This document shows, piece by piece, positions 10,501 to 28,326 of a stretch of DNA of 64,000 nt (position 1 is the first letter of the stretch; every line of letters starts with the position of its first letter). The position numbers and the translations under genes are program-made. The notes beneath the pieces are model-generated. The model did no database searches, was not told where the DNA came from, and saw nothing but the letters and a program-made list of their open reading frames with translations. Location of the stretch: positions 1-64,000 of IMG/VR virus record IMGVR_UViG_3300050120_000170, one strand, 5' to 3'. This DNA comes from a virus.

Positions 10501-10507
10501 TCACTTT

Positions 10508-10908: not shown

Positions 10909-10951
10909 ACGCCCCTGTTCCAGTCCCCCTGGCAGGGGCGTTTTTCGTTTT
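10909..10951 (+). terminator. rho-independent terminator
   Basis: ACGCCCCTG..CAGGGGCGT, a 9-bp stem, followed by TTTTTCGTTTT. Confidence 0.8.
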
Positions 10952-10958
10952 ATGCGGG

Positions 10959-10972
10959 CTTTACTTCGTCTC
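10959..10972 (+). promoter_or_regulatory. CTTTACTTCGTCTC promoter box
   Basis: Exact 14-mer directly after the terminator. The downstream gene has CAGGAGGA-N4-GTG at 11021. Confidence 0.5.
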
Positions 10973-11020
10973 CGAGGCGGAGCCTACTACGTGAACCATC
11001 GAACCTATCAGGAGGATATC

Positions 11021-11626: not shown

Positions 11627-11627
11627 A

Positions 11628-12485
11628 TTGGCTAAATCGGCAACAGCTAAGAAGCCCGGGACCGACGTGGCGGTGTCCAGGGGTCATAACGTCCCCGCCC
11701 ACCTCAAGGCAAAGATCGCGGCGGACGCGGGGAAGGGCATCAGTGAGTCAGCGGATGACTCACTTGTACCCCTCCTGGTCGTGCTCCAGGCTCAGTCGCC
11801 CCAGTCAATGAAGCAGAAGCCCGAATATCTGAAGGGAGCCGAGGCGGGCTGTCTCTGGATGAAGAACGCTCCGCAGCCGGTCGTCAAGTCCGAGGTGGGT
11901 GTCCTCGCCCAGCCGGTCTCGTTCTACAAGAACGTGGTGGAGTGGATACCGAAGAACAAGGATGGCTCCGGCGGCGGTTACGTAGGCGAGCACAAGACGA
12001 TGCCGGCGGACGCCAAGGAGGTCGTGGACAGGGACGATCCGGAGCGTAAGCGGATGATGTCGCCCCGGGGCACCGAATACGTGGAGACCCGCAATCACGT
12101 CGTTATCCTTTACACCGAGGACGGTCAGGCCTTCCCGTACCTGATCCCGCTCTCGTCGTCCGGCCACTCGGTCTCCCGCCAGTGGATGTTCATGATGAAG
12201 TCCAAGGTCGTGGAGGGCAACAAGGTCCCGTCCTTCGCGGTCCTCTACCGGCTGAAGACGATCCTGCGCACGAAGGGTGCCCACAATTGGTACGTCATCG
12301 ACCCGCACGAGGGCTCGGACGACGGCACGGTGCTCTGGGCCTCGGATGAGCAATACGAGGCCGGCAAGACCCTCCACGAGGCGTTCGCGACGGGCGCCAA
12401 GTCCGCCGACATGTCCCAGATGCAGGACGACACGGTGCTGGCGGCGGCCAAGGTGGATACCAAGAAGGCCGGTAAGAGCATCTAA
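11628..12485 (+). CDS. hypothetical protein (possible DNA-binding or annealing factor)
   Basis: 285-aa ORF, TTG start with an AAGGAG SD. Function not recognised. Confidence 0.6.
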   Translation: MAKSATAKKPGTDVAVSRGHNVPAHLKAKIAADAGKGISESADDSLVPLLVVLQAQSPQSMKQKPEYLKGAEAGCLWMKNAPQPVVKSEVGVLAQPVSFYKNVVEWIPKNKDGSGGGYVGEHKTMPADAKEVVDRDDPERKRMMSPRGTEYVETRNHVVILYTEDGQAFPYLIPLSSSGHSVSRQWMFMMKSKVVEGNKVPSFAVLYRLKTILRTKGAHNWYVIDPHEGSDDGTVLWASDEQYEAGKTLHEAFATGAKSADMSQMQDDTVLAAAKVDTKKAGKSI

Positions 12486-12490
12486 AAGTG

Positions 12491-12502
12491 AGCGGTAGTC
12501 TG
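12491..12502 (+). promoter_or_regulatory. near-consensus ops-like element AGCGGTAGTCTG
   Basis: 9 of the 10 specified positions of GGCGGTAGnnTG. Intergenic, followed by a 6-bp GC hairpin at 12511-12531. Confidence 0.3.
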
Positions 12503-12637
12503 ATGGGTATCCCTCCTCCCGTAGCGGAGGGGTAGGTGGGCGCGCAGCGTTTATCCTCCTGGCCTGTTTGACTCGATGACAAAGCCCTACGGTTGGGGCC
12601 TTCACTTTTCATTTATAAGAAGAACAACGGGGACGCT

Positions 12638-14227
12638 GTGGCTGAGTCGCTCGCCCAACGACTAATGAAGCTGTTCACTGGGCACGAGGGCGCACACGGT
12701 ACCCACGGCACCCCGGTCCGGGAGGGCCTAAAATGGATTATCAAGGCCACGGCCCGGACGATCCGGGAGCCTGTCACCGAGGATATGTGGGAGAAGCATC
12801 TCGCCGGAAAGCGGCCCCTCGGGGTCGTCCCGATCCGGGAGAATAGCACCTGCTCTTGGGGCTCCATCGACGTAGACGAGTACGACATTGACCTGTTGTC
12901 AATCATCACCCGGGTAGAGCAGGCTAAGCTCCCCCTCGTCCCTTGCCGTTCCAAGTCCGGAGGTCTTCACCTCTGGCTGTTTCTCAAGGAGGCTGTCCCG
13001 GCGGGACAGGTCCAGGCCGTCCTGAAGGATTGGGCCGCCCAGCTCGGGCTCTCGGGGTGCGAGATATTCCCAAAGCAAACTCAGATGCTCACCGATAAGG
13101 GGGACGTAGGCAACTGGATGGTGATGCCGTACTACGGGGACACCTATAACGGGAAGATCAAGGAGCAGGTAGGCCTGAAGAAGACGGGATCGGAGATGGA
13201 GCTCAGCGAGTTCCTCCGGGCCTCCGAGGCCGCCGCCGTCACCGAGGAGGAGATGGCCACACTGGGCCAGCGCCGTTCGCAGCAGGCCAACAAGGCGAGG
13301 CGGATGCTCCCGGGCTCTAAGGAGCCCTCCAACGTCAACGACTTCTCGGACGGCCCGCCATGTCTCCAGAACATGATCCTTGACGGAGGTATCCAGCGTG
13401 GAGGTCAATCCAACACCCTACTACATATGGGCGTCTACTACAAACGGGCCAATCCGGCAGATTGGGAGAAGCGTTTGGAGCGGGCCAATCAGGAGTTTCT
13501 CTCGCCCCCCGGCTCCACTGAGGGTTTGCTATCCGTCTTGCGTTCCCTACGTAAGAAGGACTACGAGTATCTTTGCAAGACCGAGCCTATGTGTTCGCAC
13601 TGTAACTCCTCGGTATGTCGGACCCGCAAGTACGGGGTCGGAGACGGGGGGAACGTCCCGATCATAACCTCATTGTCCAAGCTGGATACGGAGCCGGTGG
13701 TCTGGTTCGTGGACGTAGAAGGGAAGCGGCTGGAGTGTTCCACGGATCAGCTCCAGAATTACATGCTGTTCCAGAAGCTATGTATCGAGCGGCTGGAAAA
13801 GTCCTACGCCCCGATAAAGATGGGGGAGTGGTTCGCGATCCTAAATGCGGCGCTCCAGAACGTCGTCCTGCTACCAGTGCCCTCAGATATTGCCCGGGGC
13901 GGCTGGTTCCACGAACTGATGGAGGAGTTTCTCACCAACCGGGCGAAGGGCAACCAGCGGGAGGATATCCTCTCGGGGCGTCCCTGGGAGTGTGAGGAAG
14001 ATCAGCGCCATTATTTCCGACTGAAGGACTTCCAGAAGTTCCTGAACCGGGAAGGGGTGAAGGAGCTGAACCGGCCCCAAATCAGTAACCGGATACGAGA
14101 CATGGGGGGTGACCGATACCAGATGAGGATCAAGGGCCGCAACGCGGATACCTGGTATGTCCCGGCGGAGGTTATCAAGCCCCTGATCGAACTAGACCCA
14201 CCACCGATCCCAGCACCACCGATCTAA
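12638..14227 (+). CDS. archaeo-eukaryotic-type primase-polymerase with PriCT-like domain
   Basis: LGVVPIRE..WGSIDVDEYD..SKSGGLHLWLF (prim-pol catalytic core). PPCLQNMILDGGIQRGGQSNTLLHMGVYY is a PriCT-like helix. Start set at the GTG at 12638 (GGGGA SD) because the upstream TTG region is AT-rich. Confidence 0.7.
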   Translation: MAESLAQRLMKLFTGHEGAHGTHGTPVREGLKWIIKATARTIREPVTEDMWEKHLAGKRPLGVVPIRENSTCSWGSIDVDEYDIDLLSIITRVEQAKLPLVPCRSKSGGLHLWLFLKEAVPAGQVQAVLKDWAAQLGLSGCEIFPKQTQMLTDKGDVGNWMVMPYYGDTYNGKIKEQVGLKKTGSEMELSEFLRASEAAAVTEEEMATLGQRRSQQANKARRMLPGSKEPSNVNDFSDGPPCLQNMILDGGIQRGGQSNTLLHMGVYYKRANPADWEKRLERANQEFLSPPGSTEGLLSVLRSLRKKDYEYLCKTEPMCSHCNSSVCRTRKYGVGDGGNVPIITSLSKLDTEPVVWFVDVEGKRLECSTDQLQNYMLFQKLCIERLEKSYAPIKMGEWFAILNAALQNVVLLPVPSDIARGGWFHELMEEFLTNRAKGNQREDILSGRPWECEEDQRHYFRLKDFQKFLNREGVKELNRPQISNRIRDMGGDRYQMRIKGRNADTWYVPAEVIKPLIELDPPPIPAPPI

Positions 14228-15688: not shown

Positions 15689-17193
15689 GGCCCCAGATCA
15701 TCCTCGGCCCCCCGGGTACGGGCAAGACAACGCGCGGCATCCGGGAGGTGGAAAACGAGCTGGGCCGGGGGGTGAGTCCGGACCGGATCGGTTACGTGAC
15801 GTTTACGACGCGGGGAGCCGAGGAGGCCAAATCGAGGGCCTGTGAGCGGTTCTCGCTCCAGCGGGATGACCTGCCATACTTCCGGACCATCCACTCCCTC
15901 TGCTTCCGGCAGCTCGGGATGTCGCGGGGCGACGTGCTGGAGGGAAAGCGGCTCAAGGAGTTCGCGAAGTACGCGGGTGTCCGTATCACCGGGAGAGTGT
16001 CCGAGGACGGTGTCTGGACCGGGTACGATACCGGCGACCGGATTATGTTCATCGAGAACCTGGCTCGCATCCGCCAGGTCCCGCTCCGGGCGGCCTATGA
16101 CGTGGACGACGATACCCTGAGCTGGAACGAGGTAGACCGGGTGTCCAAGGCGCTGCGCAAGTTCAAGAAGGCGAACGGCCTGCGGGACTTCACGGACATG
16201 CTCACCGAGTTCGTGGATACGGGGATCACGCTGGACCTAGAGGTACTGATCGTAGACGAGGCGCAGGACCTCTCGGCGCTCCAGTGGAAGGTCATCGGGC
16301 AGCTTGCCCGAGGCGTCCGGCGGCTGATCGTCTGCGGGGACGATGACCAGGCGATCTATCGCTGGGCCGGGGCGGACGCGGATCACCTTATTGATATGGA
16401 GGGTGAGGTGGAGGTTCTCGGGCAGTCCTGGAGGGTGCCGCTCAATATCCAGGTTGTAGCCAACGAGATTATAGGGCAGGTCCACAAGCGTCGTCCGAAA
16501 GAGTGGAGTGCCCGGGAGGGCAGCCCTGGGCTCGTCGCCCGGGCGGCCTCGTTCGGAGAGGTGGATTGTGGCTCCGGGGAGGTCCTCGTCTTGGCTCGCA
16601 ACGGTTACGTGATCAAGGACCAGGTAGAGCCGGAGCTGCGACGGCAGGGGATCGTCTACGAGGTCAACGGCAACCCGAGTGTCAAGGCGTCCACCCTAGA
16701 GGTTATCCAAGACTGGGAGAGCCTGCGGGCCGGTCGCTCGGTGCTCGTCGCCTCGGTTCGCGAAATATATAAGCACATGACCGTGGGCAAAGGGTTCGCC
16801 CGGGGTTTCAAGTCTCTACCAAATCGGCCCGATGACGAGGAGACCACTCTGAGCGATCTAGTCGCTCATGGGGGTCTCCTCACAGGGGCAATTTGGCACG
16901 AGGCCCTAGATAGGCTCCCCGAGGAGGAGGTGGCCTACATCACCGCCGCCCGCCGCCGGGGCGAGAAGCTGTTACAGCGTCCTCGTGTAAGGTTGAGCAC
17001 AATCCACGGCTCTAAGGGAGGCGAGGCGGAGCACGTCGTCCTATTCAAGGAGATGGCCCGGCGAACCTACGGCGAGATGACCCACTCCAACGGTGAGGAC
17101 GAGGCCCGGGTGTGGTACGTTGGGGTGACCCGAGCCAAGGATCGACTCACTATAGTGGAAAGTAACACGCGACAAGAATGTCCCTGGCTCTAG
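15685..17193 (+). CDS. UvrD/Rep-like SF1 helicase (paralog 1)
   Basis: ILGPPGTGKTT, LIVDEAQDLS, CGDDDQAIYRWAGAD, STIHGSKGGEAEHVVLF, YVGVTRAKDRLTIV. Start at the ATGA overlap. Confidence 0.85.
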   Translation: MRPQIILGPPGTGKTTRGIREVENELGRGVSPDRIGYVTFTTRGAEEAKSRACERFSLQRDDLPYFRTIHSLCFRQLGMSRGDVLEGKRLKEFAKYAGVRITGRVSEDGVWTGYDTGDRIMFIENLARIRQVPLRAAYDVDDDTLSWNEVDRVSKALRKFKKANGLRDFTDMLTEFVDTGITLDLEVLIVDEAQDLSALQWKVIGQLARGVRRLIVCGDDDQAIYRWAGADADHLIDMEGEVEVLGQSWRVPLNIQVVANEIIGQVHKRRPKEWSAREGSPGLVARAASFGEVDCGSGEVLVLARNGYVIKDQVEPELRRQGIVYEVNGNPSVKASTLEVIQDWESLRAGRSVLVASVREIYKHMTVGKGFARGFKSLPNRPDDEETTLSDLVAHGGLLTGAIWHEALDRLPEEEVAYITAARRRGEKLLQRPRVRLSTIHGSKGGEAEHVVLFKEMARRTYGEMTHSNGEDEARVWYVGVTRAKDRLTIVESNTRQECPWL

Positions 17194-17223
17194 CTTTACT
17201 TCGTCTCGGACCACGCGCATGAT
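17194..17223 (+). promoter_or_regulatory. CTTTACTTCGTCTC-type promoter (TTTACT-N17-CATGAT)
   Basis: Exact 14-mer immediately after the helicase stop. Followed by a CTCAGGAGGA SD and the ATG at 17250. Confidence 0.5.
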
Positions 17224-17249
17224 ACCGGATTAGACTGTCTCAGGAGGAC

Positions 17250-17717
17250 ATGATGTTCATATGTAGCGGGAGCCTAGACTACGGGGCTGGGAATACAATA
17301 GCCGAGCTGAGTGATCTTCAGTACGGTTTACTGCGTGGGGCGGTGACGTCCGAGTTCGCAAAGAAGCTGCCCGAGAACCGTTCGGAGTTCAAGCCGGACG
17401 ACTTCCACGGCTGGTCCGAGTGCGTCATGGACGACGTGGAGGTGGAGGCGTTTACCAGGTACGGTATGGAGGTCAAGATGAAGACCGTCCGGGGCCTATC
17501 TAGGGGGGACGCAGGCCCGGTGGTACAGCACGTCACTCAGATTAGTCTTGCCAACATCGGTCTGTTGGAGGTGGATGAGGTCACGTACCAGGAGGACTGC
17601 TGTACGGACGAGCTTCAATCTCTACTAGACGGAGGCTGGCGTATCCTGTGCGTGTGTCCACCAAAGGACGCGCGTAGACCCACCTACATACTCGGACGGC
17701 GGAGGGACAAGAAGTGA
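17250..17717 (+). CDS. hypothetical protein (first gene of modification island)
   Basis: 155-aa ORF. C-terminal DELQSLLDGGWRILCVCP..RRPTYILGR. No function recognised. Confidence 0.55.
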   Translation: MMFICSGSLDYGAGNTIAELSDLQYGLLRGAVTSEFAKKLPENRSEFKPDDFHGWSECVMDDVEVEAFTRYGMEVKMKTVRGLSRGDAGPVVQHVTQISLANIGLLEVDEVTYQEDCCTDELQSLLDGGWRILCVCPPKDARRPTYILGRRRDKK

Positions 17718-18616
17718 CGGACGGTGTAGAGCGGCTCAAGACCTGGATCGTGGAGCGAGAGGCCACCCGGTTCCGCAAGGAGAACAATCTCCCCATGGAC
17801 AACGTCCCGGACGGGAAGGGTGGTACCCGTCCGATCTGGACCGAGGACCCGATCATTGGGGCTTACCGTTTCTGTAACGTCCGGCGGGAAGACGACCGAG
17901 TGACGAAGTGGATAGCCAAGAATTGGCGGACCCCGAACCAGGACGACCCGGACCTCTGGTTTGCGATGCTGGTCGCCCGGTTCATCAATTGGCCGGATAC
18001 GCTGGAGCAGTTGGGCTATCCTATCCTACATACCGGAGCCGAGGCCGCCTGGTCCCTGAGCAAGTTCCTCCAGGTGATGGCCGCTCGGAAAGCACGCAAG
18101 TTGAAGTGCTACACCGGAGCCTATATGGTCCGGGCGGACCGGGATCACGCGGACAAGGCGGCCTACCAGGAGGCCGTCGTGTTCACCCCGATGTGGAAGA
18201 ACCGCTATGCACTACGCCCAAAGAAGGGTGATACGCTAAACAGCTATCATATGCTCCTCGGTCAGTTTCACGGCCTCGGCTCGTTTATGGCGGCCCAGAT
18301 CGTCGCTGACTTGAAGTACGTTGCGCCGCTCTCTAGCGCCTCGGACTGGTGGACGTTCGCGGCCTCCGGGCCGGGATCGCGGCGGGGCATGAACCGGGTT
18401 GCGGGTCGTAAGCCTGACGCCCCCTACACCGAGGACGAATGGCGGGCGGACCTCGGACGGCTTTACCAGAAATTGAGGGAGATGCCTCTCAAAAACGAGG
18501 AGCACAACCTGTTGGAGGGCCTCCACGCCCAGGACATCCAGAATTGTCTCTGCGAGTTCGACAAATACGAACGGGTCCGGCTCGGCGAGGGGCGACCCCG
18601 GAGCAAGTATCCATAA
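17714..18616 (+). CDS. aGPT-pyrophosphorylase-like DNA base hypermodification protein (paralog 1, tentative)
   Basis: WTEDPIIGAYRFCNVRREDDRVTKWI..DDPDLWFAMLVARFINWPDTL recalls the conserved N-terminus of alpha-glutamyl/putrescinyl thymine pyrophosphorylase clade proteins. Recalled from memory, not searched. Confidence 0.5.
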   Translation: MTDGVERLKTWIVEREATRFRKENNLPMDNVPDGKGGTRPIWTEDPIIGAYRFCNVRREDDRVTKWIAKNWRTPNQDDPDLWFAMLVARFINWPDTLEQLGYPILHTGAEAAWSLSKFLQVMAARKARKLKCYTGAYMVRADRDHADKAAYQEAVVFTPMWKNRYALRPKKGDTLNSYHMLLGQFHGLGSFMAAQIVADLKYVAPLSSASDWWTFAASGPGSRRGMNRVAGRKPDAPYTEDEWRADLGRLYQKLREMPLKNEEHNLLEGLHAQDIQNCLCEFDKYERVRLGEGRPRSKYP

Positions 18617-18626
18617 CCAAGGGAGA

Positions 18627-18827
18627 ATGATGATGTTACCCACCAACGAGATTAAACCCAAGGTGGACCTCATAATCGGGACATACCTCAAGGGCGTGAA
18701 GACCCGTCCCGAGGATCAAGCCGTTATCGAAGCGGCAACGGCGCTGGTTACTTCCACCCTGGAGGCCTTCCATGATTTGGTCTACTACATCCAGGAGATT
18801 GAAGGTATTGAGAGGCGACGCCGATGA
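18627..18827 (+). CDS. hypothetical protein
   Basis: 66-aa ORF with a GGGAGA SD, coupled to the neighbouring genes. Confidence 0.45.
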   Translation: MMMLPTNEIKPKVDLIIGTYLKGVKTRPEDQAVIEAATALVTSTLEAFHDLVYYIQEIEGIERRRR

Positions 18828-19726
18828 AAAACCCGATGTGCGTGGAGGGCACTCCTCTGGAGCATTACCCAGAGCTAGGGCTCTGGGTAAAGCGCGAAGA
18901 TTTGTGCTGCCCGCCCGGTCCTCATTTCTCCAAGACCCGGGGCGTGTACGCGCACATCAAGAACCGCCCCGAGGCGGTGATTGGGTGCCTCGATACGTCG
19001 CACTCGCAGGGCGGTTGGGCGACGGCGCAAGCGTGTAAGCTCCTCGGCAAAAAGGCCGTGGTCTTCTACCCCGAGACCGTGAAGATGAGGCGGGACGGAT
19101 ACGAGTTCCAGGAGCAACAACTGCGTCCCCGGGCGCTTGGAGCCTCGCTGGCTCCGCTTCAGGCCGGACGTTCCGCCGTCCTATATCACGCGGCCAAGAA
19201 GAAGCTACGCAAAATCGTCCCCAGCCGGGCCTCGGTCTACATGATGCCCAACGCCCTCAAACTCCCAGAGATGATTGACGAGACCGTGGCCGAGGTCCTC
19301 CGGACGCCCCTCCCCCCGGTTGACCTCGTCATCGTGTCCGCGTCCTCGGGGACGATAGCGGCGGGAGTAATCTCCGGCTTAACCCGGCTCGGCTACACCG
19401 GGGGGATCGTCGTCCACCAGGGGTACAGCCGCCCGGCCCACACCATTCGGAACTATATGGCCACGATGGTGGCTGAGTATTCCAACCGGCTCCTAGTCGC
19501 TCAGAAGCATCCGCATCAGCGCGGGGACGTGGATATTCAGCTCTGGCGGGAGGACTTTACGCTCGTGGACGAGGGTTACAGTTATGGGGACTCAGCTCCG
19601 GCGATCCGGGAGGATCAGGTCCCGTTCCCGTCCAACAAGTTCTATGACCGGAAGGCCCTCTGGTGGTGGTTGGATCAGGGCCGGAAGGTCCACAAGGGCG
19701 AGGTTCTCCTCTGGAACATCGGGTGA
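18824..19726 (+). CDS. PLP-dependent enzyme, tryptophan-synthase-beta/ACC-deaminase-like fold
   Basis: LWVKREDL..FSKTRG (putative PLP lysine) and the SASSGTIAAGV glycine-rich phosphate loop. Confidence 0.65.
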   Translation: MKNPMCVEGTPLEHYPELGLWVKREDLCCPPGPHFSKTRGVYAHIKNRPEAVIGCLDTSHSQGGWATAQACKLLGKKAVVFYPETVKMRRDGYEFQEQQLRPRALGASLAPLQAGRSAVLYHAAKKKLRKIVPSRASVYMMPNALKLPEMIDETVAEVLRTPLPPVDLVIVSASSGTIAAGVISGLTRLGYTGGIVVHQGYSRPAHTIRNYMATMVAEYSNRLLVAQKHPHQRGDVDIQLWREDFTLVDEGYSYGDSAPAIREDQVPFPSNKFYDRKALWWWLDQGRKVHKGEVLLWNIG

Positions 19727-19730
19727 CGTG

Positions 19731-19829
19731 ATGTCGTTAGAGGTCCTGGCCTGGATAGGTCTGTTTGGTTTGATTAACCCTCGGTTCGGGTTCTTCGTTC
19801 TTATGGTGTACGCCGCTCGTCATGCTTGA
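19731..19829 (+). CDS. 32-aa hydrophobic peptide (speculative)
   Basis: MSLEVLAWIGLFGLINPRFGFFVLMVYAARHA fills the gap between the PLP gene and the HNH gene. Confidence 0.25.
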   Translation: MSLEVLAWIGLFGLINPRFGFFVLMVYAARHA

Positions 19830-20223
19830 GGAGCCGCCCACCGCCGAGGAGCTGGCCCGGTTCTACAGTTTCGTGGAGAGGCTACCGAATGGCTGTCACT
19901 TCTGGGCGGGAGCGCGATCCCGGGGCAAGGGGAACACCAAGTGGTACGGGTCATTCCGGTATCGCGGGAAGGTTATACGGGCTCATCGCTTTGCTCACGA
20001 TTACATTGGTGGGAAGTCTTGTCCACCTGGGTATCATCGGGACCACACTTGCGTGTTTAGTCTTTGCGTTAATCCGGAGCACCTGGAGGCGATTACCCGA
20101 GAGGAAAACGAGCGGCGGAAACGGGAGCGGGCATTGGCGGCGGCGGTAATCAAGATCACCTTAACGGTGACGAACGTAGTCAAGAAGGTGACACAGCACG
20201 CGGTAGCGGTGCCGGGCTTGTAA
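19822..20223 (+). CDS. free-standing HNH endonuclease (homing-type)
   Basis: CHFWAGARSRGKGNTKWYGSFRYRGKVIRAHRFAH..YHRDHTCVFSLCVNPEHLEAITREEN, the classic phage HNH_3 pattern. Confidence 0.8.
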   Translation: MLEEPPTAEELARFYSFVERLPNGCHFWAGARSRGKGNTKWYGSFRYRGKVIRAHRFAHDYIGGKSCPPGYHRDHTCVFSLCVNPEHLEAITREENERRKRERALAAAVIKITLTVTNVVKKVTQHAVAVPGL

Positions 20224-20361
20224 CGCCGAGGGCTTCATAGAGGGCCACGGCCTCCCGTCCCATATGAAGTGCGAGGCGGGACCGGGTATTCTGGTCCACA
20301 AGCGATACTGCGAGATGAATGAACACCTGCTCTCGGACGGGCGGATCAAGGAAGACAGCCT

Positions 20362-20520
20362 ATGACCTACAGTTGGTTGACCGATGAGCAGTTAGAAGCG
20401 AAATGTGAGGAGTTGCGGGCTCGGGCGCACGACGCCAACAAACAAAACTACGATGCGCGGGCCCATGACTGGGAAGTGGCCAGCAACGAATTGGAACGCC
20501 GGAAGGCTTTGAAGAAGTGA
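20362..20520 (+). CDS. 52-aa helical protein (speculative)
   Basis: Below the ORF track's length cutoff. MTYSWLTDEQLEAKCEELRARAHD.. with a GTGA overlap to the next gene. Confidence 0.3.
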   Translation: MTYSWLTDEQLEAKCEELRARAHDANKQNYDARAHDWEVASNELERRKALKK

Positions 20521-20933
20521 AACGGTTCGACAACATATCAACCGAGGACCTTACCCAACAGGAGCACGACCTGCGGACGGAGGCTTGTCTCATGAAGTTG
20601 GAGGTTCAGAGGCGAATGCTGGCCGATTGCCCCGCGAAGTGCGGTTGGGTCTACCCGATTATTGACGGGCGTTTTAAGGGCCGGTATATAATGGTGTCCC
20701 AAGTTATCGTGGAGTACAAGGATCGCTGGGAGACACAGGGAAAGACGAAGAAGCCCTGCGGGTTCGTCTGTACTATCCACGGGGTCCTGAGGGGGACCTC
20801 TACGAGGAGAGACGGCTTTAACATCAATCACATCGTCCTCTGGAACAGCACTTTAGACTACACGAAGGGAGTCAAGGGACCCCGAGACTATAACCAATAT
20901 CACCATACATCCGGGAACGAGGACGACGAATAA
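20517..20933 (+). CDS. hypothetical protein
   Basis: 138-aa ORF. Visibly lower GC than its neighbours. Confidence 0.5.
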   Translation: MKRFDNISTEDLTQQEHDLRTEACLMKLEVQRRMLADCPAKCGWVYPIIDGRFKGRYIMVSQVIVEYKDRWETQGKTKKPCGFVCTIHGVLRGTSTRRDGFNINHIVLWNSTLDYTKGVKGPRDYNQYHHTSGNEDDE

Positions 20934-22309
20934 TGGATCACGCAGCCTGGTTACGAGACGGCCTCGATGGAGCCGACGAAGAACTGAAGAAATCGTACCA
21001 ATACTTCATGCGGGTAGACCCGGATCAGCGGGACTTCCTCGGACCTATCGTTAAGATTGACGATCCGGTAACGGGACGCCAGATGCGAACCCGAGTTGGG
21101 AAGGTGGGTATGGTTCGGGGTGCCAAACCCGAGAACATGAAGGACGTCACGATCTATATGGACCCGCTGCCGCACGTCCGTATCGAGAAGGGCAAGGACC
21201 TCCAGGGCTGGTATCAGGGCAAGCAGCTCTCGGCTCCGGGATCGCGGGAGCGGCCCTGTATGACAGACGCGATCCTCACCGAGCCCTACGGCGGCTTTTG
21301 CACTGTGGGCTGCTCGTTCTGCTATATCAACTCCGGGTTCCGGGGCTATCGTGGCTCCGGCTTGATTACTGTCCCGATTGGCTATGGTGCGCACGTCCGG
21401 AAGCAGTTAGCCTCAATGCGAACCTCGGCGGCGGGATACTTCTCCAGCTTCACCGATCCGTTCCTCCCGTTGGAGGACTACTATCACAACACCGAGGAGG
21501 GCGTCCGTGCTTTTACAGATAACGGATTACCAGTCTTTTTCCTCAGCAGACTGGCGTACCCCGACTGGGCAATTGATGCCTTGCGGGCCAATCCGTATAG
21601 TTACGCCCAGAAGTCCATTAACACTCCGGACCCGGACGATTGGAAAAAACTTTCTCCTGGTGCCCTTCCACTCATGGACCATCTCGATGAGATCAGGGCA
21701 CTGCGGGCAGCTGGGATTTACGTCAGCATACAAGTCAACCCCATCATCCCCGGGATCGTAACTCACGACGACGTGGAGAAGCTTTTCGGGATGCTCGCCG
21801 AGGCCGGAGCCAACCACGTCATTGTAAAGTTCGTGGAAGCTAACCACCCCTGGGCCGGGGCGATGGTAGAACGGATCAACAAGCGGTTCGGCGACAACCG
21901 AGGCGCGGCCTTCCGGGACCTGTTCACCGAGAATAGCTGCGGAGGCCAGAAGACGGTCACCGAGGAGTATCGCCGGGAGGGCCACACCCGCTATATGAAG
22001 CGGGCGACCGAGCTGGGTATGACCTATTCGCTGTGCTACGAGTACACGAAGAAGTCTGGTGAATGGCACTCTATGGGGCCGGAGTTCATCACCTCGGACC
22101 AGTGCCACGGCCACCGGGTCCCGATGCATACGAGGAGTGGCCCGGGGCAGCCGTTCCGTCCACTCGGAGAATGCCCACCCTCGGGATGCCTGTCATGCTC
22201 GGACGGCAACCGGGGTGTGCCTCGTTGCGGCTCTGCCCTCCTCGGGGAGGCTAAGGCACTGAGGATCGCAGACCTGAGAAAAGACCCATTCAAGGAGGTA
22301 GACGCATGA
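20933..22309 (+). CDS. radical SAM enzyme (SplB/DNA-photolyase-like architecture)
   Basis: GGFCTVGCSFCYINSGFRGY carries the CxxxCxxC cluster motif. 458 aa with a Cys-rich C-terminus. Confidence 0.8.
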   Translation: MDHAAWLRDGLDGADEELKKSYQYFMRVDPDQRDFLGPIVKIDDPVTGRQMRTRVGKVGMVRGAKPENMKDVTIYMDPLPHVRIEKGKDLQGWYQGKQLSAPGSRERPCMTDAILTEPYGGFCTVGCSFCYINSGFRGYRGSGLITVPIGYGAHVRKQLASMRTSAAGYFSSFTDPFLPLEDYYHNTEEGVRAFTDNGLPVFFLSRLAYPDWAIDALRANPYSYAQKSINTPDPDDWKKLSPGALPLMDHLDEIRALRAAGIYVSIQVNPIIPGIVTHDDVEKLFGMLAEAGANHVIVKFVEANHPWAGAMVERINKRFGDNRGAAFRDLFTENSCGGQKTVTEEYRREGHTRYMKRATELGMTYSLCYEYTKKSGEWHSMGPEFITSDQCHGHRVPMHTRSGPGQPFRPLGECPPSGCLSCSDGNRGVPRCGSALLGEAKALRIADLRKDPFKEVDA

Positions 22310-22896
22310 AAATTGATCTTGATGAAGTACGCTACGGGAGCCGCTACGGTAAAGCTCCAATTCCCCGGGTTCACGGCAACGGCTTTATCCAGCTGGATAT
22401 CGGAGCCGGGCGGCGGCTCCACGTTTGGGGGCACCGGGACCTACCGAGACAGAAAGTGGATACCGGCATTCACGACCACATGTTTGACTTTATATCCACT
22501 TGTATCGCAGGGCGGGTCGTCAACGCCCACTACAAGGTTGTCGGCAGGGAACCTACTCACACGGTCTACGGTCCCGAGCCCCGGGACGGCGAGGACACGG
22601 CGCTGAGACCTTTAGACTTGGGGGGACTAACTCCGGGTAAACTCATTGATTGTCGCCCCTACGTCTACCACATGCGCCTCGTCCCCTCGGGCGAGAGCTA
22701 CAGCTTTGAGCACCGAGAGTTCCACGAGACGTTTACGGATCGCCCCTCGGCGACGATCATGCAGAAAGGTGCGAAGTATCCGGGGCGAGCCCGGGTCCTC
22801 GTCCCTATCGGCTTTGAGCCGGATAACAAGTTCAACCGGAACGATTTTCCGCCCGAGCGGCTCTGGGAGATTATCCACGAGGTTCTCCGCTACTAA
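22306..22896 (+). CDS. hypothetical His-rich protein (possible cupin-like metalloenzyme)
   Basis: HVWGH..GIHDHMFDF..FEHREFHETF His clusters. ATGA-coupled to the radical SAM gene. Confidence 0.4.
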   Translation: MKIDLDEVRYGSRYGKAPIPRVHGNGFIQLDIGAGRRLHVWGHRDLPRQKVDTGIHDHMFDFISTCIAGRVVNAHYKVVGREPTHTVYGPEPRDGEDTALRPLDLGGLTPGKLIDCRPYVYHMRLVPSGESYSFEHREFHETFTDRPSATIMQKGAKYPGRARVLVPIGFEPDNKFNRNDFPPERLWEIIHEVLRY

Positions 22897-22901
22897 CCCC
22901 G

Positions 22902-22931
22902 CTTTACTTCGTCTCTGGAGGCGTGCATGAT
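22902..22931 (+). promoter_or_regulatory. CTTTACTTCGTCTC-type promoter (TTTACT-N17-CATGAT)
   Basis: Exact 14-mer 6 nt after the stop at 22896. Same -10-like hexamer as at 17218. Confidence 0.45.
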
Positions 22932-23082
22932 CGTCCTAGAAAGAATGACCATTGAGACAAATGACGCTCACCTGGCTAACTTCTTCACGGGGTTAGAGAA
23001 GGGAAAGCGGCTCGCATTTCTAGGACGAGAATGGGCTCTGGAGAGCTACGGTGGGGGCAACGAGGGTGGGCGGTTCAAGGCT

Positions 23083-23154
23083 ATTATTAGGTTAAACGGC
23101 GCACCAAGGGAAACATGGATTATTAGGTTAAACGGCGCACCGAGGGAAACATGG
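23083..23154 (+). repeat. tandem 36-bp duplication spanning the ribosome-binding site and start codon
   Basis: ATTATTAGGTTAAACGGCGCACC(A/G)AGGGAAACATGG twice, with 1 mismatch. The second copy supplies the ATG at 23151. Confidence 0.9.
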
Positions 23155-23990
23155 CAGCAGACAGTACTAAGATCGGGGTCCGAGAGTTCGGCGACCTCCT
23201 CATTAAGACCCAGGACCTGGATCCAACGTATGTGGGCCTCCATGGTGCGGGTCTGGAAGTGGCTCAGCTCTCCCGCTGGCTCCTAGCTTACTGGTGTTTT
23301 TACCACGTGGGCCTCGCCTCCTGGCTCTCCGAACATACCAACAAGGACTATTGGCGCTGGATGGGGGAGGCGGCGGCTAATATAGCCCGGCCCCCGAATG
23401 CCCGTTACGAGCGTTGGCCCCGGGCTCCGGAACGCCGCCACTTCCGAGGTCAGAAGTGCGTGGACGCCGTTGACTGGCTCTCCAAGAAGGAGCCGGAGCA
23501 TTGGGTGGGAATGTTCCTTGACGCCCCGAACCGGGTCCGGAATGCAGGAGCCTGGACGGATAAGCAGGTTATGAAAAAGGTCCAAGATTGGCCGTTGTTC
23601 GGTCCCTGGATCGCGTTCAAGGTCGCCGATATGCTGGAGCGTTGCGCGGGCGTCCCGGTAAAGTTTGACCCCAACATCGCACTGATGTACGACGAGCCCC
23701 GGGCCGGGCTCGGGCTCTGCCAGCTCCACTCTCCGCCGGAGTACGCCCACCTGTCCCAGACGGATTGGTACAACGCCCTGTCTTTGTACTTCCGGGCGAG
23801 GCTGGCCCCCCCGGCTCGGGATCGGACTTGCGGCCCTCAGGAGGTGGAGACGGTCCTCTGTAAGTGGAAGTCCTATATGGGTGGACATTACCACCTCGGA
23901 AAGGATATCACCGATCACCGCAACGCCCTAGACGGTTGGGGGATTACGGCGGATCGGATCAAGAAGGCAATGCCGGAGGAGGTGAAATGA
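23151..23990 (+). CDS. aGPT-pyrophosphorylase-like or glycosylase-fold hypermodification protein (paralog 2, tentative)
   Basis: 279 aa. WLLAYWCFYHVGLASW..ERRHFRGQK..GPWIAFKVADMLER. Call rests on gene context and recalled family features only. Confidence 0.4.
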   Translation: MAADSTKIGVREFGDLLIKTQDLDPTYVGLHGAGLEVAQLSRWLLAYWCFYHVGLASWLSEHTNKDYWRWMGEAAANIARPPNARYERWPRAPERRHFRGQKCVDAVDWLSKKEPEHWVGMFLDAPNRVRNAGAWTDKQVMKKVQDWPLFGPWIAFKVADMLERCAGVPVKFDPNIALMYDEPRAGLGLCQLHSPPEYAHLSQTDWYNALSLYFRARLAPPARDRTCGPQEVETVLCKWKSYMGGHYHLGKDITDHRNALDGWGITADRIKKAMPEEVK

Positions 23991-24589
23991 TTGCTATCAA
24001 TATCAGGGGAACCGGGGGGAGCGGGAAGTCCACACTGGTCCGCAAGTTGATCGACCTCTACCCGAACCACGCGAATATTCTGGAGGAGAAGCGCAAGCGG
24101 GCGATGGCGACGTGCCACTGGTTCGGAGATAAGCTTAAAGACAGTCCGGCGGTTCGGCCTCCCGGCCTGTTTGTCCCGGGGCACTACGAGACGGATTGCG
24201 GCGGCTGCGACACGGTCAAGACCGTGGATAAGGTCTATGATCTGGTGCGGGCGTCCGCCCTCTGGGACGGCAACAACGTCCTCTACGAGGGGATCATGGT
24301 TATGGACGACGTGACCCGGGCCGTTGCCTTTGACCAGGATTTGAAGAAGGCCGGAGGCCGCCTGGTCGTAGTCAGCTTGACTACGACCATTGACGAATGT
24401 CTCGCAGGCATCCGGCAGAGGCGAGGCGCAGAGAAGGAGGCGGCCAAGCCCCTCAACGAGAAGAACACCCGGGACCGGATGAAGCGGCAGGAGAACAGTC
24501 TCCATCGCCTCAAGCAGGCCGGGGTGGAGCTGCGCAAGTTGTCGCGGGAGGACGCTTTCCTCCAGATCAGGGAATTGTTGGGGGTCTAG
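23987..24589 (+). CDS. P-loop kinase (5-hydroxymethyluracil DNA kinase-like)
   Basis: Start at the ATGA overlap. MIAINIRGTGGSGKSTLVRKL Walker A, about 200 aa, next to the pyrophosphorylase-like gene. Confidence 0.6.
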   Translation: MIAINIRGTGGSGKSTLVRKLIDLYPNHANILEEKRKRAMATCHWFGDKLKDSPAVRPPGLFVPGHYETDCGGCDTVKTVDKVYDLVRASALWDGNNVLYEGIMVMDDVTRAVAFDQDLKKAGGRLVVVSLTTTIDECLAGIRQRRGAEKEAAKPLNEKNTRDRMKRQENSLHRLKQAGVELRKLSREDAFLQIRELLGV

Positions 24590-25053
24590 TGAAGCCAGTT
24601 ATCGTGGGGATGAATAACCCTCTCTCGGGACGTTCGGAGCATGCGCTGTACCCGTTCCCGGAAGGGTGTACCGGACACCGGCTCTGGGTGCTTCTGAATA
24701 AGCGAACGGGGGCCTCCCAGGAGGATTACCTGGAGGCATTCGAGCGGCGGAACCTGCTTAACGAGCGGGTCTGGAATTTGAACAAGGCCCGGGACGCGGC
24801 CTCAAAGCTTATCCTGGAGATGAGGGGGCGCACCGTCCTCGTCCTCGGGGCGGAGGTCCGGACGGTTCTCAAACTGCCGGTGATGCTCGTACACCCGCAG
24901 GAATTGTGGGGCGTGACCTGGAGGCAACTCCCACATCCTTCGGGTCGTAACCCCTGGTACATGAAGGCGGGCAACCGGGAGGTCGCGGAGCTGCTCCTAG
25001 AGGAGCTGTTCCGGCTTCCACAACTAGGCCCAAGGGAGCCGATGATGCTATGA
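24589..25053 (+). CDS. uracil-DNA-glycosylase superfamily protein, SMUG-like motifs
   Basis: The GTG overlaps the TAG. VIVGMNNPLSG versus SMUG motif GMNPGP, and LPHPSGRNPWY versus HPSPRNP. Confidence 0.5.
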   Translation: MKPVIVGMNNPLSGRSEHALYPFPEGCTGHRLWVLLNKRTGASQEDYLEAFERRNLLNERVWNLNKARDAASKLILEMRGRTVLVLGAEVRTVLKLPVMLVHPQELWGVTWRQLPHPSGRNPWYMKAGNREVAELLLEELFRLPQLGPREPMML

Positions 25054-25502
25054 CGGTCCTCAGCGCACAGACGATCCTCCGGCTGGGGATCGTAATCCCC
25101 TGCCACGAGGCCTGGAAGGACGAGCACGGCAATTCCGCCGGGCTCTCGGGGTGTGGCTACGACATCACGCTGGAGAAGGAGATAGCCCTCCATCCGGGGT
25201 GCCACCTGCTCTGTGCCGCGCAGCAACAGTTTTCTCTCCCGAACAACGTCATGGGCGTCGTCCACGACAAGTCCTCGCTCGCCCGGCGGGGCCTCGCCGT
25301 CCAAAACACGGTCCTGGAACCGGGCTGGCGAGGCTTCCTGACCCTGGAGGTCACGAACCACGGCCACTCTTATATGCGCCTCGCCGAGGGAGCCGCCATT
25401 GCCCAGGTGGTGTTTCACTTCCTGGACGAGCCCACCCTCCTCCCCTACGCGGGAAAGTATCAGGACCAGGAACCCGGTCCCCAGAAGGCAAGGAGCAAGT
25501 AG
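25050..25502 (+). CDS. dcd: dCTP deaminase/dUTPase-fold enzyme
   Basis: GYDITL..DKSSLARRGLAVQNTVLEPGWRGFLTLEVTNHG, a typical Dcd/Dut beta-barrel signature. Confidence 0.8.
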   Translation: MTVLSAQTILRLGIVIPCHEAWKDEHGNSAGLSGCGYDITLEKEIALHPGCHLLCAAQQQFSLPNNVMGVVHDKSSLARRGLAVQNTVLEPGWRGFLTLEVTNHGHSYMRLAEGAAIAQVVFHFLDEPTLLPYAGKYQDQEPGPQKARSK

Positions 25503-25503
25503 A

Positions 25504-26694
25504 ATGCACGTCATACACGCCCGGAACGTCAGCGCGGCCCTCCCTCAGGGGTTGGCCTTCCTATCCAGCTGCGGTATTTGGGAGGAAACCCGAGCCGGGC
25601 GAGCCCTCGTCTCCCCCGTCCCCGTCGTCACAGCCTACACCAAGCCCCGGGAGCGGGTCCTACTTTCCCCGATCCGGGACGCCAATCCGTTCTTTCATCT
25701 CGCCGAGGCGCTGTGGATGCTCCAGGGTCGGGCTGATAGCAAGTTCCTGGACAACTTCATTCGCGACTTCGGCAGCCGGTTCGCGGAGCCGGGGGGAGAC
25801 GTTCATGGGGCCTACGGACGGCGCTGGCGGGGTCACTTTCAACAGAGCCAGAAGGGCTTCAGTGGGACCTGGGGGCTCAGGGTTCTAGACCAGCTGGCGT
25901 CCGTCGCTCGGGAGCTGAAGGACAACCCGGGCTCCCGCCAGGTCGTCCTCACGATGTGGGACCCGGGAGCGGACCTCGGGATTGCTGGCCTGAAGGACCG
26001 GCCCTGTAACACCCATATATACTTCCGGCTCCGGGATGAGGCCTACCAGAACCCACCTGTAACGGACCAGAACTCAGCGGAGCATGAGGCCCGGATTGCG
26101 CGCGGGGAGCATATGGTTCTGGATATGACCGTCCTCTGCCGTTCCAACGACATCGTGATGGGGGCCTACGGCGCGAACGCCGTCCACTTCTCCGTCCTTC
26201 AGGAATACCTAGCCTCCAAGATCGGCGTGCGGGTGGGGACTTACTATCAGGTCTCGAACAACTTCCACGCCTACGAGCGGGACCTCAACTTGCTCGCCAA
26301 GCGGAACCATGACAGCGGGTCTCATTACGCGGTGGAGGACGAGCTGAAGGACCTCTCTTATGAGGAGCGGCGGGTGAGCCCCCACCGGCTCGTGGATAAC
26401 CCGGCGACTTTCGATGGTGAGCTGCTTTGGCTGATGGATGCCTACGAGGCGGTGTTGGGGCAGGACACGGCTGACGAGAGTATCCACTCTCACGCCGAGG
26501 ACCTCGGCAACGGGTTCCTCGCCCATACGGTCTGGCCCATGCTGATGGCGCATCGGTTCTACCGGCGGGAGCAATACGACCCGGCTTTCCAGTGGGCGGA
26601 TCGGATTGAGGCTAAGGATTGGGGACGGGCCTCCGTGGAGTGGCTCCGCCGCCGCGAATTCATGTCCCAACATAAGAAGGAGAAGTTAGCTTGA
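25504..26694 (+). CDS. thymidylate-synthase-family pyrimidine hydroxymethylase (divergent ThyA homolog)
   Basis: AEALWMLQGRADSKFL, HGAYGRRWR, NPGSRQVVLTMWDP, DRPCNTHIYF (catalytic Cys), CRSNDIVMGAYGANAVHF. 396 aa with insertions. Confidence 0.8.
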   Translation: MHVIHARNVSAALPQGLAFLSSCGIWEETRAGRALVSPVPVVTAYTKPRERVLLSPIRDANPFFHLAEALWMLQGRADSKFLDNFIRDFGSRFAEPGGDVHGAYGRRWRGHFQQSQKGFSGTWGLRVLDQLASVARELKDNPGSRQVVLTMWDPGADLGIAGLKDRPCNTHIYFRLRDEAYQNPPVTDQNSAEHEARIARGEHMVLDMTVLCRSNDIVMGAYGANAVHFSVLQEYLASKIGVRVGTYYQVSNNFHAYERDLNLLAKRNHDSGSHYAVEDELKDLSYEERRVSPHRLVDNPATFDGELLWLMDAYEAVLGQDTADESIHSHAEDLGNGFLAHTVWPMLMAHRFYRREQYDPAFQWADRIEAKDWGRASVEWLRRREFMSQHKKEKLA

Positions 26695-27245
26695 GACGAG
26701 AACAAATCATGGCGTCCCGGCAGCTCGCCGGGCGCGTAGAGCGGTGGCACACCTGGCCAATGATCCGGCGGCCTACCGTGATGGAACACGCCGGGCGGGT
26801 TGCTTCGCTGTTCTGCGAGCTGTGGGGTATCCCCCGGGGCGAGGTCCTGTATTATTGCCTCCACCACGACCACGGTGAGTTTACGGCGGGCGATGTGCCG
26901 TTCAGCGCCAAGGAGCTGGCTCCCAACCTTCGGGAGAGCATGAACTTTGCCGAGGCTATCGGGCGGGATCGGCTCGGGATTATCCTGCCGGAGATCAACC
27001 AGGAGGAGTTCCTCCGGTTCAAGATTTGCGACCTCCTGGAGATGTTCGAGACGGCCATCGTGGAGTGGAATATGGGGAACCGCTACGCGGGTTGCGTGGT
27101 GGTGGACTGCGCTAATACGGCCCTGGATATGGCGCACAAGGTAGACCTCCTGGTGAGTGGAAACCGGACGGCCTGCCGTGACTATATCGAGGGCTGGGTG
27201 TACAAGAACGGCTACAAGGGAGCAGCAACCTATGACGTCTTCTAA
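26691..27245 (+). CDS. HD-domain 5'-deoxynucleotidase (YfbR-like)
   Basis: RWHTWPMIRRPTVMEHAGRVA..YCLHHDHGEFTAGDVP. TTG start with an AAGGAG SD. Confidence 0.65.
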   Translation: MRREQIMASRQLAGRVERWHTWPMIRRPTVMEHAGRVASLFCELWGIPRGEVLYYCLHHDHGEFTAGDVPFSAKELAPNLRESMNFAEAIGRDRLGIILPEINQEEFLRFKICDLLEMFETAIVEWNMGNRYAGCVVVDCANTALDMAHKVDLLVSGNRTACRDYIEGWVYKNGYKGAATYDVF

Positions 27246-28326
27246 CATGGAACATATGAAGCACATCGACGCGGTGGTGGACAGCGACACCGCCGTGCTC
27301 CGCCAGAAGGAGAGCACCTATCAGGGCTCGTGGAAGGCCGCCGGGGGCCGTTCGGCCTGGTTCATGTTCCGGCGCAACATGGACCGGCTCCTCTCGATGA
27401 TGAAGAAGCCTCCAGAGGTGGACGGCTTCTCGATGGTGGACCTGGACGATTGTATCCAGCAGGCCTGGTCCGAGGCGGACAAGGCCTCCGGCGACTGTAC
27501 CATGGACGTTAGCATCGTCCAGTACCTCCGGGACAGCTACGTCTCCGAAAATATCTTCGCCAAGATACGGGAAAACCCATTGGGGCAGGACGGTACCGTG
27601 CTGGCTTGTCTCCGGGACCTCCGCCGCTACGCGATCCTCATCGAGGCGGAGATGGTGGGCCGGGGCGTCTTGACGCCCGAGGAGCGCGGGGGGGAGTGGG
27701 ACCGGGAGAGCAAGGAACAGCTCCTGGCTCCCGAGAAGGAACGTAAAATCCTGGAGCGGGCTCTCGGGTTCGGAGAAGGCAGCCTGGACCTATACACTTT
27801 CTGCGCTCAACTTATGGGGGTTGATCGCCAGGTGGCCAAGGAGGAGATTATCAAGCTACTCTACGGAGGGCCAAACCCGGAAACCAAGGTAGAACACATT
27901 GAGGTCAAGGTCATAGCCTCGCCCGAGAATGGCTCCCAGCATGCCAGCCTCGTTCCCTGGGCCGTTTCTACCAGCTGGCAGTACAAGCAGGGATACAACG
28001 CTAACTCTACCACACGCTCTATGTTTGATCGTTGGTGGCACCAGCAAGCTCCCGGGGTTTACGTTATGGAGACCGCCGTCCTGGTGAATGATTCCTTGGT
28101 ACCCGAAGAAATCGGCCACCTCTACATCCGCTCAGGAAACTTCTGGGTGGCCCTGATCGAGCGGTGCCCACCCGACGCCCGCGACTGGTTCCCCCGGTTA
28201 CGACGGGAGGTTAACTCCAAGGAACATGACGAGCTGCCGGCCTGGCAGAATAGCATGTACGCTTGGAACCAGAGCGGGAACAAGTGGGTTATCGAGCGGC
28301 AACACGAGGCCTGGGCACGCGACTGA
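27232..28326 (+). CDS. protein with MazG/DUF1599-like N-terminal domain and unknown C-terminal domain
   Basis: KESTYQGSWKAAGGRSAWFMFRRNMDRL..LRDLRRYAILIEAEM resembles phage all-alpha NTP-PPase-like domains. Confidence 0.4.
   Translation: MTSSNMEHMKHIDAVVDSDTAVLRQKESTYQGSWKAAGGRSAWFMFRRNMDRLLSMMKKPPEVDGFSMVDLDDCIQQAWSEADKASGDCTMDVSIVQYLRDSYVSENIFAKIRENPLGQDGTVLACLRDLRRYAILIEAEMVGRGVLTPEERGGEWDRESKEQLLAPEKERKILERALGFGEGSLDLYTFCAQLMGVDRQVAKEEIIKLLYGGPNPETKVEHIEVKVIASPENGSQHASLVPWAVSTSWQYKQGYNANSTTRSMFDRWWHQQAPGVYVMETAVLVNDSLVPEEIGHLYIRSGNFWVALIERCPPDARDWFPRLRREVNSKEHDELPAWQNSMYAWNQSGNKWVIERQHEAWARD

Follow-up and report, generated by a model that had tools for sequence, protein, structure and literature searches.

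A probable M6/YuA/Pam3-type thymidine hypermodification operon, with 5-(2-aminoethyl)-2'-deoxyuridine as its predicted base, in an uncultured myophage

The viral stretch analysed here (IMG/VR record IMGVR_UViG_3300050120_000170, positions 1 to 64,000; referred to as the window) carries a run of genes that resemble post-replicative thymidine hypermodification enzymes, which raises the question of what modified base they specify. A first-pass annotation, made from the letters of the window and a list of their open reading frames (ORFs), had described ten genes at 17714–24589, regarded the enzyme set as unusual, and suggested a different or doubly decorated side chain. The ten-gene order was confirmed, as every ORF was found on the + strand at these positions (Table 1), and identical gene calls were obtained independently on a sequence-identical Logan contig (37.8 kb). 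A JGI metagenome contig of 70.5 kb likewise matched the window exactly. The assignment to thymidine hypermodification also held, since the profile searches that had been proposed for the two pyrophosphorylase-like genes returned strong matches to hypermodification families for both (PF18723 and PF18724; Table 1). Overall, we put the probability at roughly 0.8 that these genes form a thymidine hypermodification operon of the M6/YuA/Pam3 type with 5-(2-aminoethyl)-2'-deoxyuridine (5-NedU) as its predicted base. The supposed unusual enzyme set did not survive comparison: the core matched the five-gene cluster of M6, YuA and Pam3 one for one, so that this gene set is already characterised and the window adds one more instance of it.

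Core enzymes and the predicted base

Hypermodification loci of phage YuA, Rhizobium phage RHph_I65 and Pam3 (ON014755) were compared by tblastn, and three metagenomic relatives (L004, L005 and L008) were found to share the M6-type arrangement, giving four such contigs with the window. In M6, gp51–54 have been shown biochemically to be a glycine:DNA transferase, a pyridoxal phosphate (PLP)-dependent decarboxylase, a glycinyl-thymine radical S-adenosylmethionine (radical-SAM) isomerase and a 5-hydroxymethyl-2'-deoxyuridine (5-hmdU) DNA kinase, which jointly make 5-NedU (PMC8989533); only 5-NedU and thymidine have been reported in that phage (PMC8989533; PMC5889632). YuA gp10–gp14 matched M6 gp51–gp55 by gene order and Pfam family. 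The window has counterparts of the M6/YuA transferase, PLP decarboxylase, radical-SAM isomerase, P-loop kinase, HMUDK_hel protein and thymidylate synthase (TS)-like hydroxymethylase, and the catalytic and glycine-pocket residues are also the same. The order of the genes differs, as HMUDK_hel lies ~5 kb upstream of the kinase and the PLP gene precedes the radical-SAM and transferase genes. The window also has an extra HNH gene, a cupin, a miniature protein of the uracil-DNA glycosylase (UDG) superfamily (mini-UDG) and a dCTP-deaminase-fold gene, and it is missing Nmad5. Identities to the M6/YuA proteins were only 25–64%, and the window phage has a tail-sheath gene, whereas M6 and YuA have siphovirus morphology.

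Pam3, a cultured Pseudanabaena cyanophage, is a myophage like the window phage, and the window contig also encodes Pam3_Gp34 and DUF7307 genes. Pam3 gp43–gp53 showed the same local order as the window (PLP enzyme, small ORF, HNH, radical SAM, transferase, a small gene and kinase, followed by the TS-like and HD nucleotidase genes) but differed in that HMUDK_hel and Nmad5 directly follow the kinase and in having neither a cupin nor a mini-UDG. The 5-NmdU/5-AcNmdU cluster of PaMx11 (gp46–gp49) has the kinase and glycine:DNA transferase steps in common with the window (PMC8989533), and PaMx11 gp46 was 37.5% identical to the window transferase. However, PaMx11 uses a flavin adenine dinucleotide (FAD) lyase and an acetyltransferase in place of the radical-SAM and PLP enzymes; searches of the window for FAD lyase, acetyltransferase, TAGT glycosyltransferase and rSAM-SPASM genes found none.

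The identity of the transferred group depends on the transferase, here called ADDT (formerly aGPT-Pplase2). The window ADDT was 38–44% identical to YuA gp10, the RHph_I65 protein and Pam3 gp47 (38% to YuA gp10 and 40% to Pam3). Both a Cys and a Glu are essential in clade-2 aGPT-Pplase enzymes (PMC8989533). The catalytic Cys, within ETVLCKWKS, was kept throughout the window protein and its relatives, and the QEVETVLCKWKS segment that holds the essential Cys and the neighbouring Glu was invariant relative to YuA gp10. A 2026 crystal structure of YuA Pplase2 (97% identical to M6 Pplase2) with 5-hmdU DNA and glycine defined a pocket of D24, E96, K159, K248, Y257 and D262, and exchanging the K248 and Y257 equivalents re-programmes the choice of donor (PMC13458397). 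All six residues (YuA numbering) were invariant in an alignment of the window, L004, L008, RHph_I65 and YuA proteins, and the two donor-switch positions are K and Y in the window ADDT. Because all pocket residues are conserved, the window ADDT is predicted to be a glycine:DNA transferase with the same donor as in M6. The conservation of this pocket across a distance of 25–64% identity to characterised enzymes also supports the recently proposed specificity code of these transferases.

The two enzymes that would act on the transferred glycine also retained their functional residues. The fold-II PLP enzyme matched phrog_7093 (E = 6e-59), was 45–49% identical to YuA gp11 and 52% identical to Pam3 gp43, and retained the invariant Schiff-base lysine (K36 in M6/YuA; motif FSKxRG). 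The radical-SAM enzyme was 63–64% identical to YuA gp12 and 60% identical to Pam3 gp46; its Pfam match was weak (1.7e-3), and it carries the CxxxCxxC motif as CTVGCSFCY. C125, C129 and C132, as well as C111, C370, C398, C421, C426, C429 and C439 (YuA numbering), were invariant, and the seven further Cys are consistent with an auxiliary cluster; two [4Fe-4S] clusters have been measured in M6 gp53 (PMC8989533). The radical-SAM isomerase and the PLP decarboxylase make chemical sense only after an N-linked amino acid has been installed, which implies a glycine donor (PMC8989533).

The kinase was the most divergent of the core proteins. It has the Walker A motif GTGGSGKST, and tblastn identities to the reference loci were 25–29% (25% to YuA gp13 and 28% to Pam3). 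Profile–profile alignment with hhalign against YuA gp13, Pam3 gp49 and the RHph_I65 (006) protein gave 99.0% probability (E = 3.7e-18), and the match to Pfam HMUDK_HMUD1 (E = 1e-3, 18.8 bits) lay under the family cut-off.

The presence of two divergent pyrophosphorylase-like genes had been taken as atypical in the first-pass annotation, but such a pair is canonical. Table 3 of a 2018 PNAS paper (Lee et al.) lists two aG/PT-PPlase paralogs each for M6 (gp51 and gp55), ViI (gp160 and gp247) and PhiW-14 (gp72 and gp109), as well as a kinase–PPlase fusion in SP10 (PMC5889632). YuA likewise has two, and the Pam3 annotation names an aGPT-Pplase1 as well as an aGPT-Pplase2. In the window, the protein formerly called aGPT-Pplase1 is HMUDK_hel, a homolog of M6 gp55, YuA gp14 (36% identity) and Pam3 gp50 (35% identity); YuA gp14 itself matched the HMUDK_hel Pfam family with E = 7.8e-59. 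The motifs RFCNVxRExD, GAY, GPGxxRG and LCEFDKY were invariant. HMUDK_hel is the normal companion of the kinase and not a transferase known to add a second group.

Pathway steps for the window proteins were assigned by orthology, the post-replicative steps having been shown biochemically for the M6/YuA orthologs. The exchange of pyrophosphate for an amine, on which the earlier description relied, is outdated, as work published in 2021 describes monophosphorylation followed by amino-acid transfer. Before replication, the dCTP-deaminase/dUTPase-fold enzyme, the TS-fold dUMP hydroxymethylase and the HD nucleotidase would, by homology, swap the dTTP pool for 5-hydroxymethyl-dUTP, which the phage PolA would build into DNA. 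The P-loop kinase would then turn 5-hmdU in DNA into 5-phosphomethyl-dU, the catalytic Cys of ADDT would displace the phosphate so that glycine is joined via its amino group (N-alpha-glycinylthymidine), the radical-SAM enzyme would move the linkage from N to C-alpha, and the PLP enzyme would decarboxylate the product to 5-NedU. This base shields DNA from host restriction enzymes. Taken together, the conserved pocket, PLP lysine and Cys motifs and the single ADDT make 5-NedU the best-supported product.

Several points weigh against this assignment. The phage is uncultured and its product is predicted from genes alone, and identity to the characterised enzymes is moderate. The TS-fold protein is predicted to be a hydroxymethylase and not a thymidylate synthase by homology and context, two activities that sequence alone cannot separate. 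Nmad5, which is present in YuA and Pam3, was searched for in the window and not found, and a mini-UDG has been added. Finally, the cupin gene is coupled to the radical-SAM gene, holds the same slot in four contigs and also occurs in an unrelated locus (L021; see below), and it could signal a base that is processed further. If the assignment is right, the M6/Pam3-type 5-NedU pathway extends to an uncultured myophage lineage of ~60% GC. The cupin and the mini-UDG are two uncharacterised families that offer concrete biochemical targets.

The cupin-fold protein and other possible side chains

The His-rich protein had been singled out earlier as an enzyme beyond the known sets. This was correct in part: it is absent from M6, YuA and Pam3 and is the sole cluster-conserved element beyond the M6 set, but its family is not specific to hypermodification. 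The protein contains 11 His in 196 aa (5.6%) and gave no Pfam match even at E ≤ 1, no NCBIfam match and no PDB sequence or profile match. AlphaFold2, run on a 43-sequence alignment, predicted an all-beta structure (pLDDT 93.9), for which nearly all of the top 40 Foldseek matches in the PDB were cupins (probability 1.0, TM-score 0.3–0.4, about 0.38), led by thiol, hydroquinone and quercetin dioxygenases; matches in the viral library BFVD were phage cupins. H23, H56, H58 and H140 were invariant in the 43 homologs, and in the model H56-x-H58 and H140 sit on strands in the order expected for cupin metal ligands. This HxH...H arrangement without a conserved motif-1 Glu resembles that of 3-His cupins, and we therefore refer to the protein as a putative 3-His cupin metalloenzyme. 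With 3-His cupin dioxygenases (cysteine/3-mercaptopropionate dioxygenase 4tlf, 3uss and 6xb9; hydroquinone dioxygenase; quercetinase) it has in common the modelled beta-barrel, the HxH plus distal His and the lack of a conserved motif-1 Glu. It differs from them in the low TM-score, in an identity of 10–19%, in matching neither a Pfam cupin family nor the sequence of a PDB chain, and in an extra conserved N-terminal PRVHGNGFIQLD / RLHVWGH segment.

If the cupin were a fifth, O2-dependent tailoring enzyme that oxidises the glycinyl or aminoethyl side chain (by hydroxylation or by oxidative deamination or decarboxylation), the mature base would be new and not 5-NedU. We consider this unlikely, although several observations speak for it. 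The fold matches those of O2-activating 3-His cupins and the four His are invariant. In the window, L004, L005 and L008 (relatives 50–68% identical) the cupin gene separates the radical-SAM gene from the transferase gene, and in the window and L005 its start codon shares bases with the stop codon of the radical-SAM gene (ATGA). Furthermore, a homolog with 38% identity lies inside a different putative base-modification cluster, L021 (IMGVR_UViG_3300045934_000076, 5573–13757), which reads TAGT glycosyltransferase, rSAM-SPASM, two ~300-aa proteins without known function, cupin, unknown, HMUDK_hel, unknown, TS-like and DUF3310. However, the likeness to dioxygenases is at the fold level, there being no sequence match to a characterised cupin, and proteins of this family, with these invariant residues in place, occur in hundreds of phages that lack a kinase, ADDT or radical-SAM cluster. 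About 300 cultured phages encode it among early genes with no ADDT or radical-SAM cluster nearby, most of them PB1-like Pseudomonas phages (~290, with F8 ORF011 as one example) and others infecting Brevundimonas and Caulobacter. Bradyrhizobium-type loci have it between DnaB and DUF1643/PolA, and in 11 further viral contigs it adjoins replication and repair genes (SNF2 and UvrD helicases, nucleases, ligases, SSB and ThyX). The cupin matches included not one of the 95 cultured phages that have an ADDT homolog, the cupin was found in none of 38 mini-UDG/kinase loci, and ten longer proteins with a cupin domain, scanned for Rosetta-stone fusions, had no informative partner domains. Because the family sits mostly in phages without hypermodification genes, a tailoring role is improbable, and the most likely reading is a metalloprotein widespread in phage replication modules, whose place in this operon is incidental. 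Were it to tailor C-alpha-glycinylthymidine or 5-NedU, the product would be a previously unseen thymidine derivative and thus a new DNA modification, and the wider family (phrog_4784; ~4,800 clusters, 4,763 representatives at 50% identity clustering with E ≤ 1e-3) would represent an enzyme in general use among phages, with DNA bases or nucleotides as its substrates.

The other two ways of departing from 5-NedU concern the transferases, and we rate both lower. Were the ADDT to use an amine, or an amino acid that is not glycine, isomerisation and decarboxylation would leave a different side chain. This could be imagined for an ADDT of only 38–44% identity to characterised glycine transferases, in a family whose other clades accept serine, putrescine and diaminopropane and where two residues switch specificity (PMC13458397); with the six glycine-contacting residues identical to those of YuA, both switches included, and with downstream radical-SAM and PLP enzymes closest to the M6-type glycinyl-specific pair, it is very unlikely. 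Still harder to credit is HMUDK_hel as a second active transferase that adds a second, different group. Its C-terminal LCEFDKY has an invariant Cys–Glu pair that lines up with the catalytic ETVLCKWKS of ADDT, and HMUDK_hel is kept even in related clusters without ADDT. Against this, M6, YuA and Pam3 have the paralog too and only 5-NedU and thymidine are reported for M6 (PMC8989533; PMC5889632), glycine transfer in vitro did not need M6 gp55 (PMC8989533), and in SP10 the equivalent domain forms one protein with the kinase, which explains its Pfam name (kinase helical domain). The paralogy of HMUDK_hel and ADDT is taken from the literature; an hhalign comparison of the two with shallow alignments was not significant (E = 0.24), leaving a correspondence at the motif level only. 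A second ADDT-type gene was looked for in the 64-kb window and not found, the window having one ADDT and one HMUDK_hel, and the doubly decorated side chain suggested earlier is therefore not indicated.

Mini-UDG, precursor supply and cassette swapping

Directly after the kinase gene lies the mini-UDG (24589–25053), for which no Pfam, NCBIfam or other sequence-family match was obtained. Its AlphaFold2 model (pLDDT 94.8) matched TDG, Thermus UDG, SMUG1, UdgX and UNG in Foldseek (TM-score 0.5–0.66, ~0.6), and the motifs G6-M7-N8-N9-P10 (GMNNP) and H115-P116-S117-G118 (HPSG) were invariant or nearly so. On the strength of this model, the protein is a putative, previously undescribed miniature member of the UDG superfamily. 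More than 350 unannotated homologs were found. Among 38 IMG/VR loci that carry it (L024–L061), a TS-like gene is directly downstream in 25, a homologous P-loop kinase is directly upstream in 22, and HMUDK_hel is within a few kb in 21. A relationship to DUF1643, the cupin neighbour in Bradyrhizobium-type loci, was considered and rejected (hhalign probability 0.3%). The mini-UDG fills the position held by Nmad5 in YuA and Pam3. PolA-fused UDG domains of the T-hypermodified phages SP-15 and YerA41 excise dU (bioRxiv 10.1101/2025.03.26.645540), and a similar role is plausible for the mini-UDG by analogy; equally, it may recognise 5-hmU for the kinase.

Three genes downstream of the mini-UDG are candidates for precursor supply. 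The TS-like protein was 37% identical both to YuA gp17, which is annotated as a deoxyuridylate hydroxymethyltransferase, and to Pam3 gp52, and is in a syntenic position; it is accordingly predicted to be a dUMP hydroxymethylase. Homologs of the HD nucleotidase follow the TS-like gene in RHph_I65, Pam3 and 22 of the 38 viral contigs, and the likely role of this 5'-deoxynucleotidase is to exclude dTMP/dTTP. The dCTP deaminase/dUTPase-fold enzyme is predicted to supply dUMP.

Comparison of the 38 loci revealed a fixed frame of UvrD helicase, HMUDK_hel, a variable cassette, kinase, mini-UDG, TS-like and HD genes. The M6-type cassette (PLP, radical SAM and ADDT) was found in the window, L004, L005, L008 and L025, and a PaMx11-like cassette (FAD oxidoreductase and ADDT) in L026 and L060. 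A third, with a TAGT glycosyltransferase, rSAM-SPASM and unknowns but no ADDT, was found in L027, L028, L038, L039, L042 and L043. The association of the mini-UDG with these loci and the swapping of cassettes within them are the more original by-products of the analysis.

Operon layout and neighbouring genes

Most genes from 17.7 to 27.2 kb on the + strand are joined by 4-nt start/stop overlaps (ATGA/GTGA), which indicates one operon. A promoter and terminator scan of 17000–25600 yielded nothing above shuffled expectation. Elsewhere the window encodes an AEP primase, several helicases, PolA, a terminase, a portal, a capsid-like protein and a tail sheath, and the phage is from an uncultured ~60% GC lineage with a contractile tail (myophage). 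When the region was compared by megablast with 50,697 phage records, the radical-SAM gene of two Rhizobium phages gave the sole match (73% identity); a close cultured relative is absent among these records.

Table 1. Features of the predicted hypermodification operon and its downstream genes (window coordinates).
Feature	Position	Strand	Evidence
HMUDK_hel (formerly aGPT-Pplase1)	17714–18616	+	PF18723, E = 3.9e-42
Small ORF, 66 aa	18627–18827	+	no family match
Fold-II PLP enzyme, M6 gp52 homolog	18824–19726	+	PF00291 (PALP), E = 2.9e-14
HNH endonuclease	19822–20223	+	HNH_3, E = 8e-6; several PHROG HNH families, to 1e-20
Two ORFs (52 aa, 138 aa)	20362–20520, 20517–20933	+	no family match
Radical-SAM enzyme, M6 gp53 homolog	20933–22309	+	phrog_9252, E = 1.5e-204
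His-rich cupin-fold protein, 196 aa	22306–22896	+	phrog_4784 only (function unknown)
36-bp tandem duplication, 2 copies	23083–23154	+	TRF score 137, 97% match
ADDT (formerly aGPT-Pplase2), M6 gp51/YuA gp10 homolog	23151–23990	+	PF18724, E = 4e-17
Predicted P-loop 5-hmdU DNA kinase, M6 gp54/YuA gp13 homolog	23987–24589	+	Walker A and profile–profile match
Predicted mini UDG-superfamily protein, 154 aa	24589–25053	+	fold comparison; no sequence-family match
dCTP deaminase/dUTPase-fold enzyme	25050–25502	+	PF22769, E = 6.6e-19; PF00692, E = 7e-12
Thymidylate-synthase-fold enzyme, predicted dUMP hydroxymethylase	25504–26694	+	PF00303, E = 9e-20
HD-domain 5'-deoxynucleotidase (YfbR-like)	26691–27245	+	PF12917, E = 7e-7

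The 66-aa ORF is translationally coupled to the PLP gene, and its homologs (38–48% identity) lie directly 5' of the PLP gene in L004, L005 and L008. An HNH gene is indeed present between the PLP and radical-SAM genes, where the first-pass annotation had placed an insertion, but it is an old resident. The same slot is occupied in Pam3 (50% identity), L004 (87%, truncated) and L008 (82%), and a recent insertion was rejected, as the Pam3 slot is filled too and the divergence is similar to that of the flanking genes; the gene is missing from L005, YuA and RHph_I65. In the window it is bordered by gaps of 95 and 138 nt, unlike neighbouring genes. This HNH protein is probably a long-resident, homing-type endonuclease, and its distribution suggests site-specific homing or long vertical retention. 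In the relatives, HNH_3 was located at 7021–7380 (Pam3, L023), 5445–5717 (L004) and 5644–5919 (L008). The 52-aa and 138-aa ORFs that follow gave no Pfam, PHROG or NCBIfam match and had no homolog in the syntenic L004, L005 and L008, and their region (20362–20933) has the lowest GC of the window (0.57); they are probably outside the pathway and may be a recently acquired moron.

Upstream of the transferase, the 36-bp duplication at 23083–23154, in perfect register, doubles the ribosome-binding site and start codon (ATG) of the transferase gene, and its first copy makes a 3-codon mini-ORF (ATG GAT TAT TAG) just 5' of the true start. The duplication may serve as a regulatory leader or may have arisen by recent slippage during replication. 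An ORF at 22927–23286 was not counted as a gene, as it runs across the start of the transferase gene in a different frame and its match in L004 was weak (37%, E = 4e-6).

Between the HD nucleotidase and PolA, an ORF of 364–389 aa (27157–28326) had no Pfam match. Its N-terminal ~90 residues resemble Pam3 gp54 ('nucleotide modification'; 28% identity, E = 3e-7 to 6e-13), and a homolog comes after the HD gene in half of the related loci (19/38). A 636-aa protein (50731–52641), encoded among the head-morphogenesis genes with the portal on one side and the capsid-like gene on the other, matched phrog_6216 (function unknown; E = 8e-150). Its N-terminal part includes a short segment that resembles NUDIX (phrog_1198, E = 7.5e-17), and this is an odd place for a NUDIX motif.

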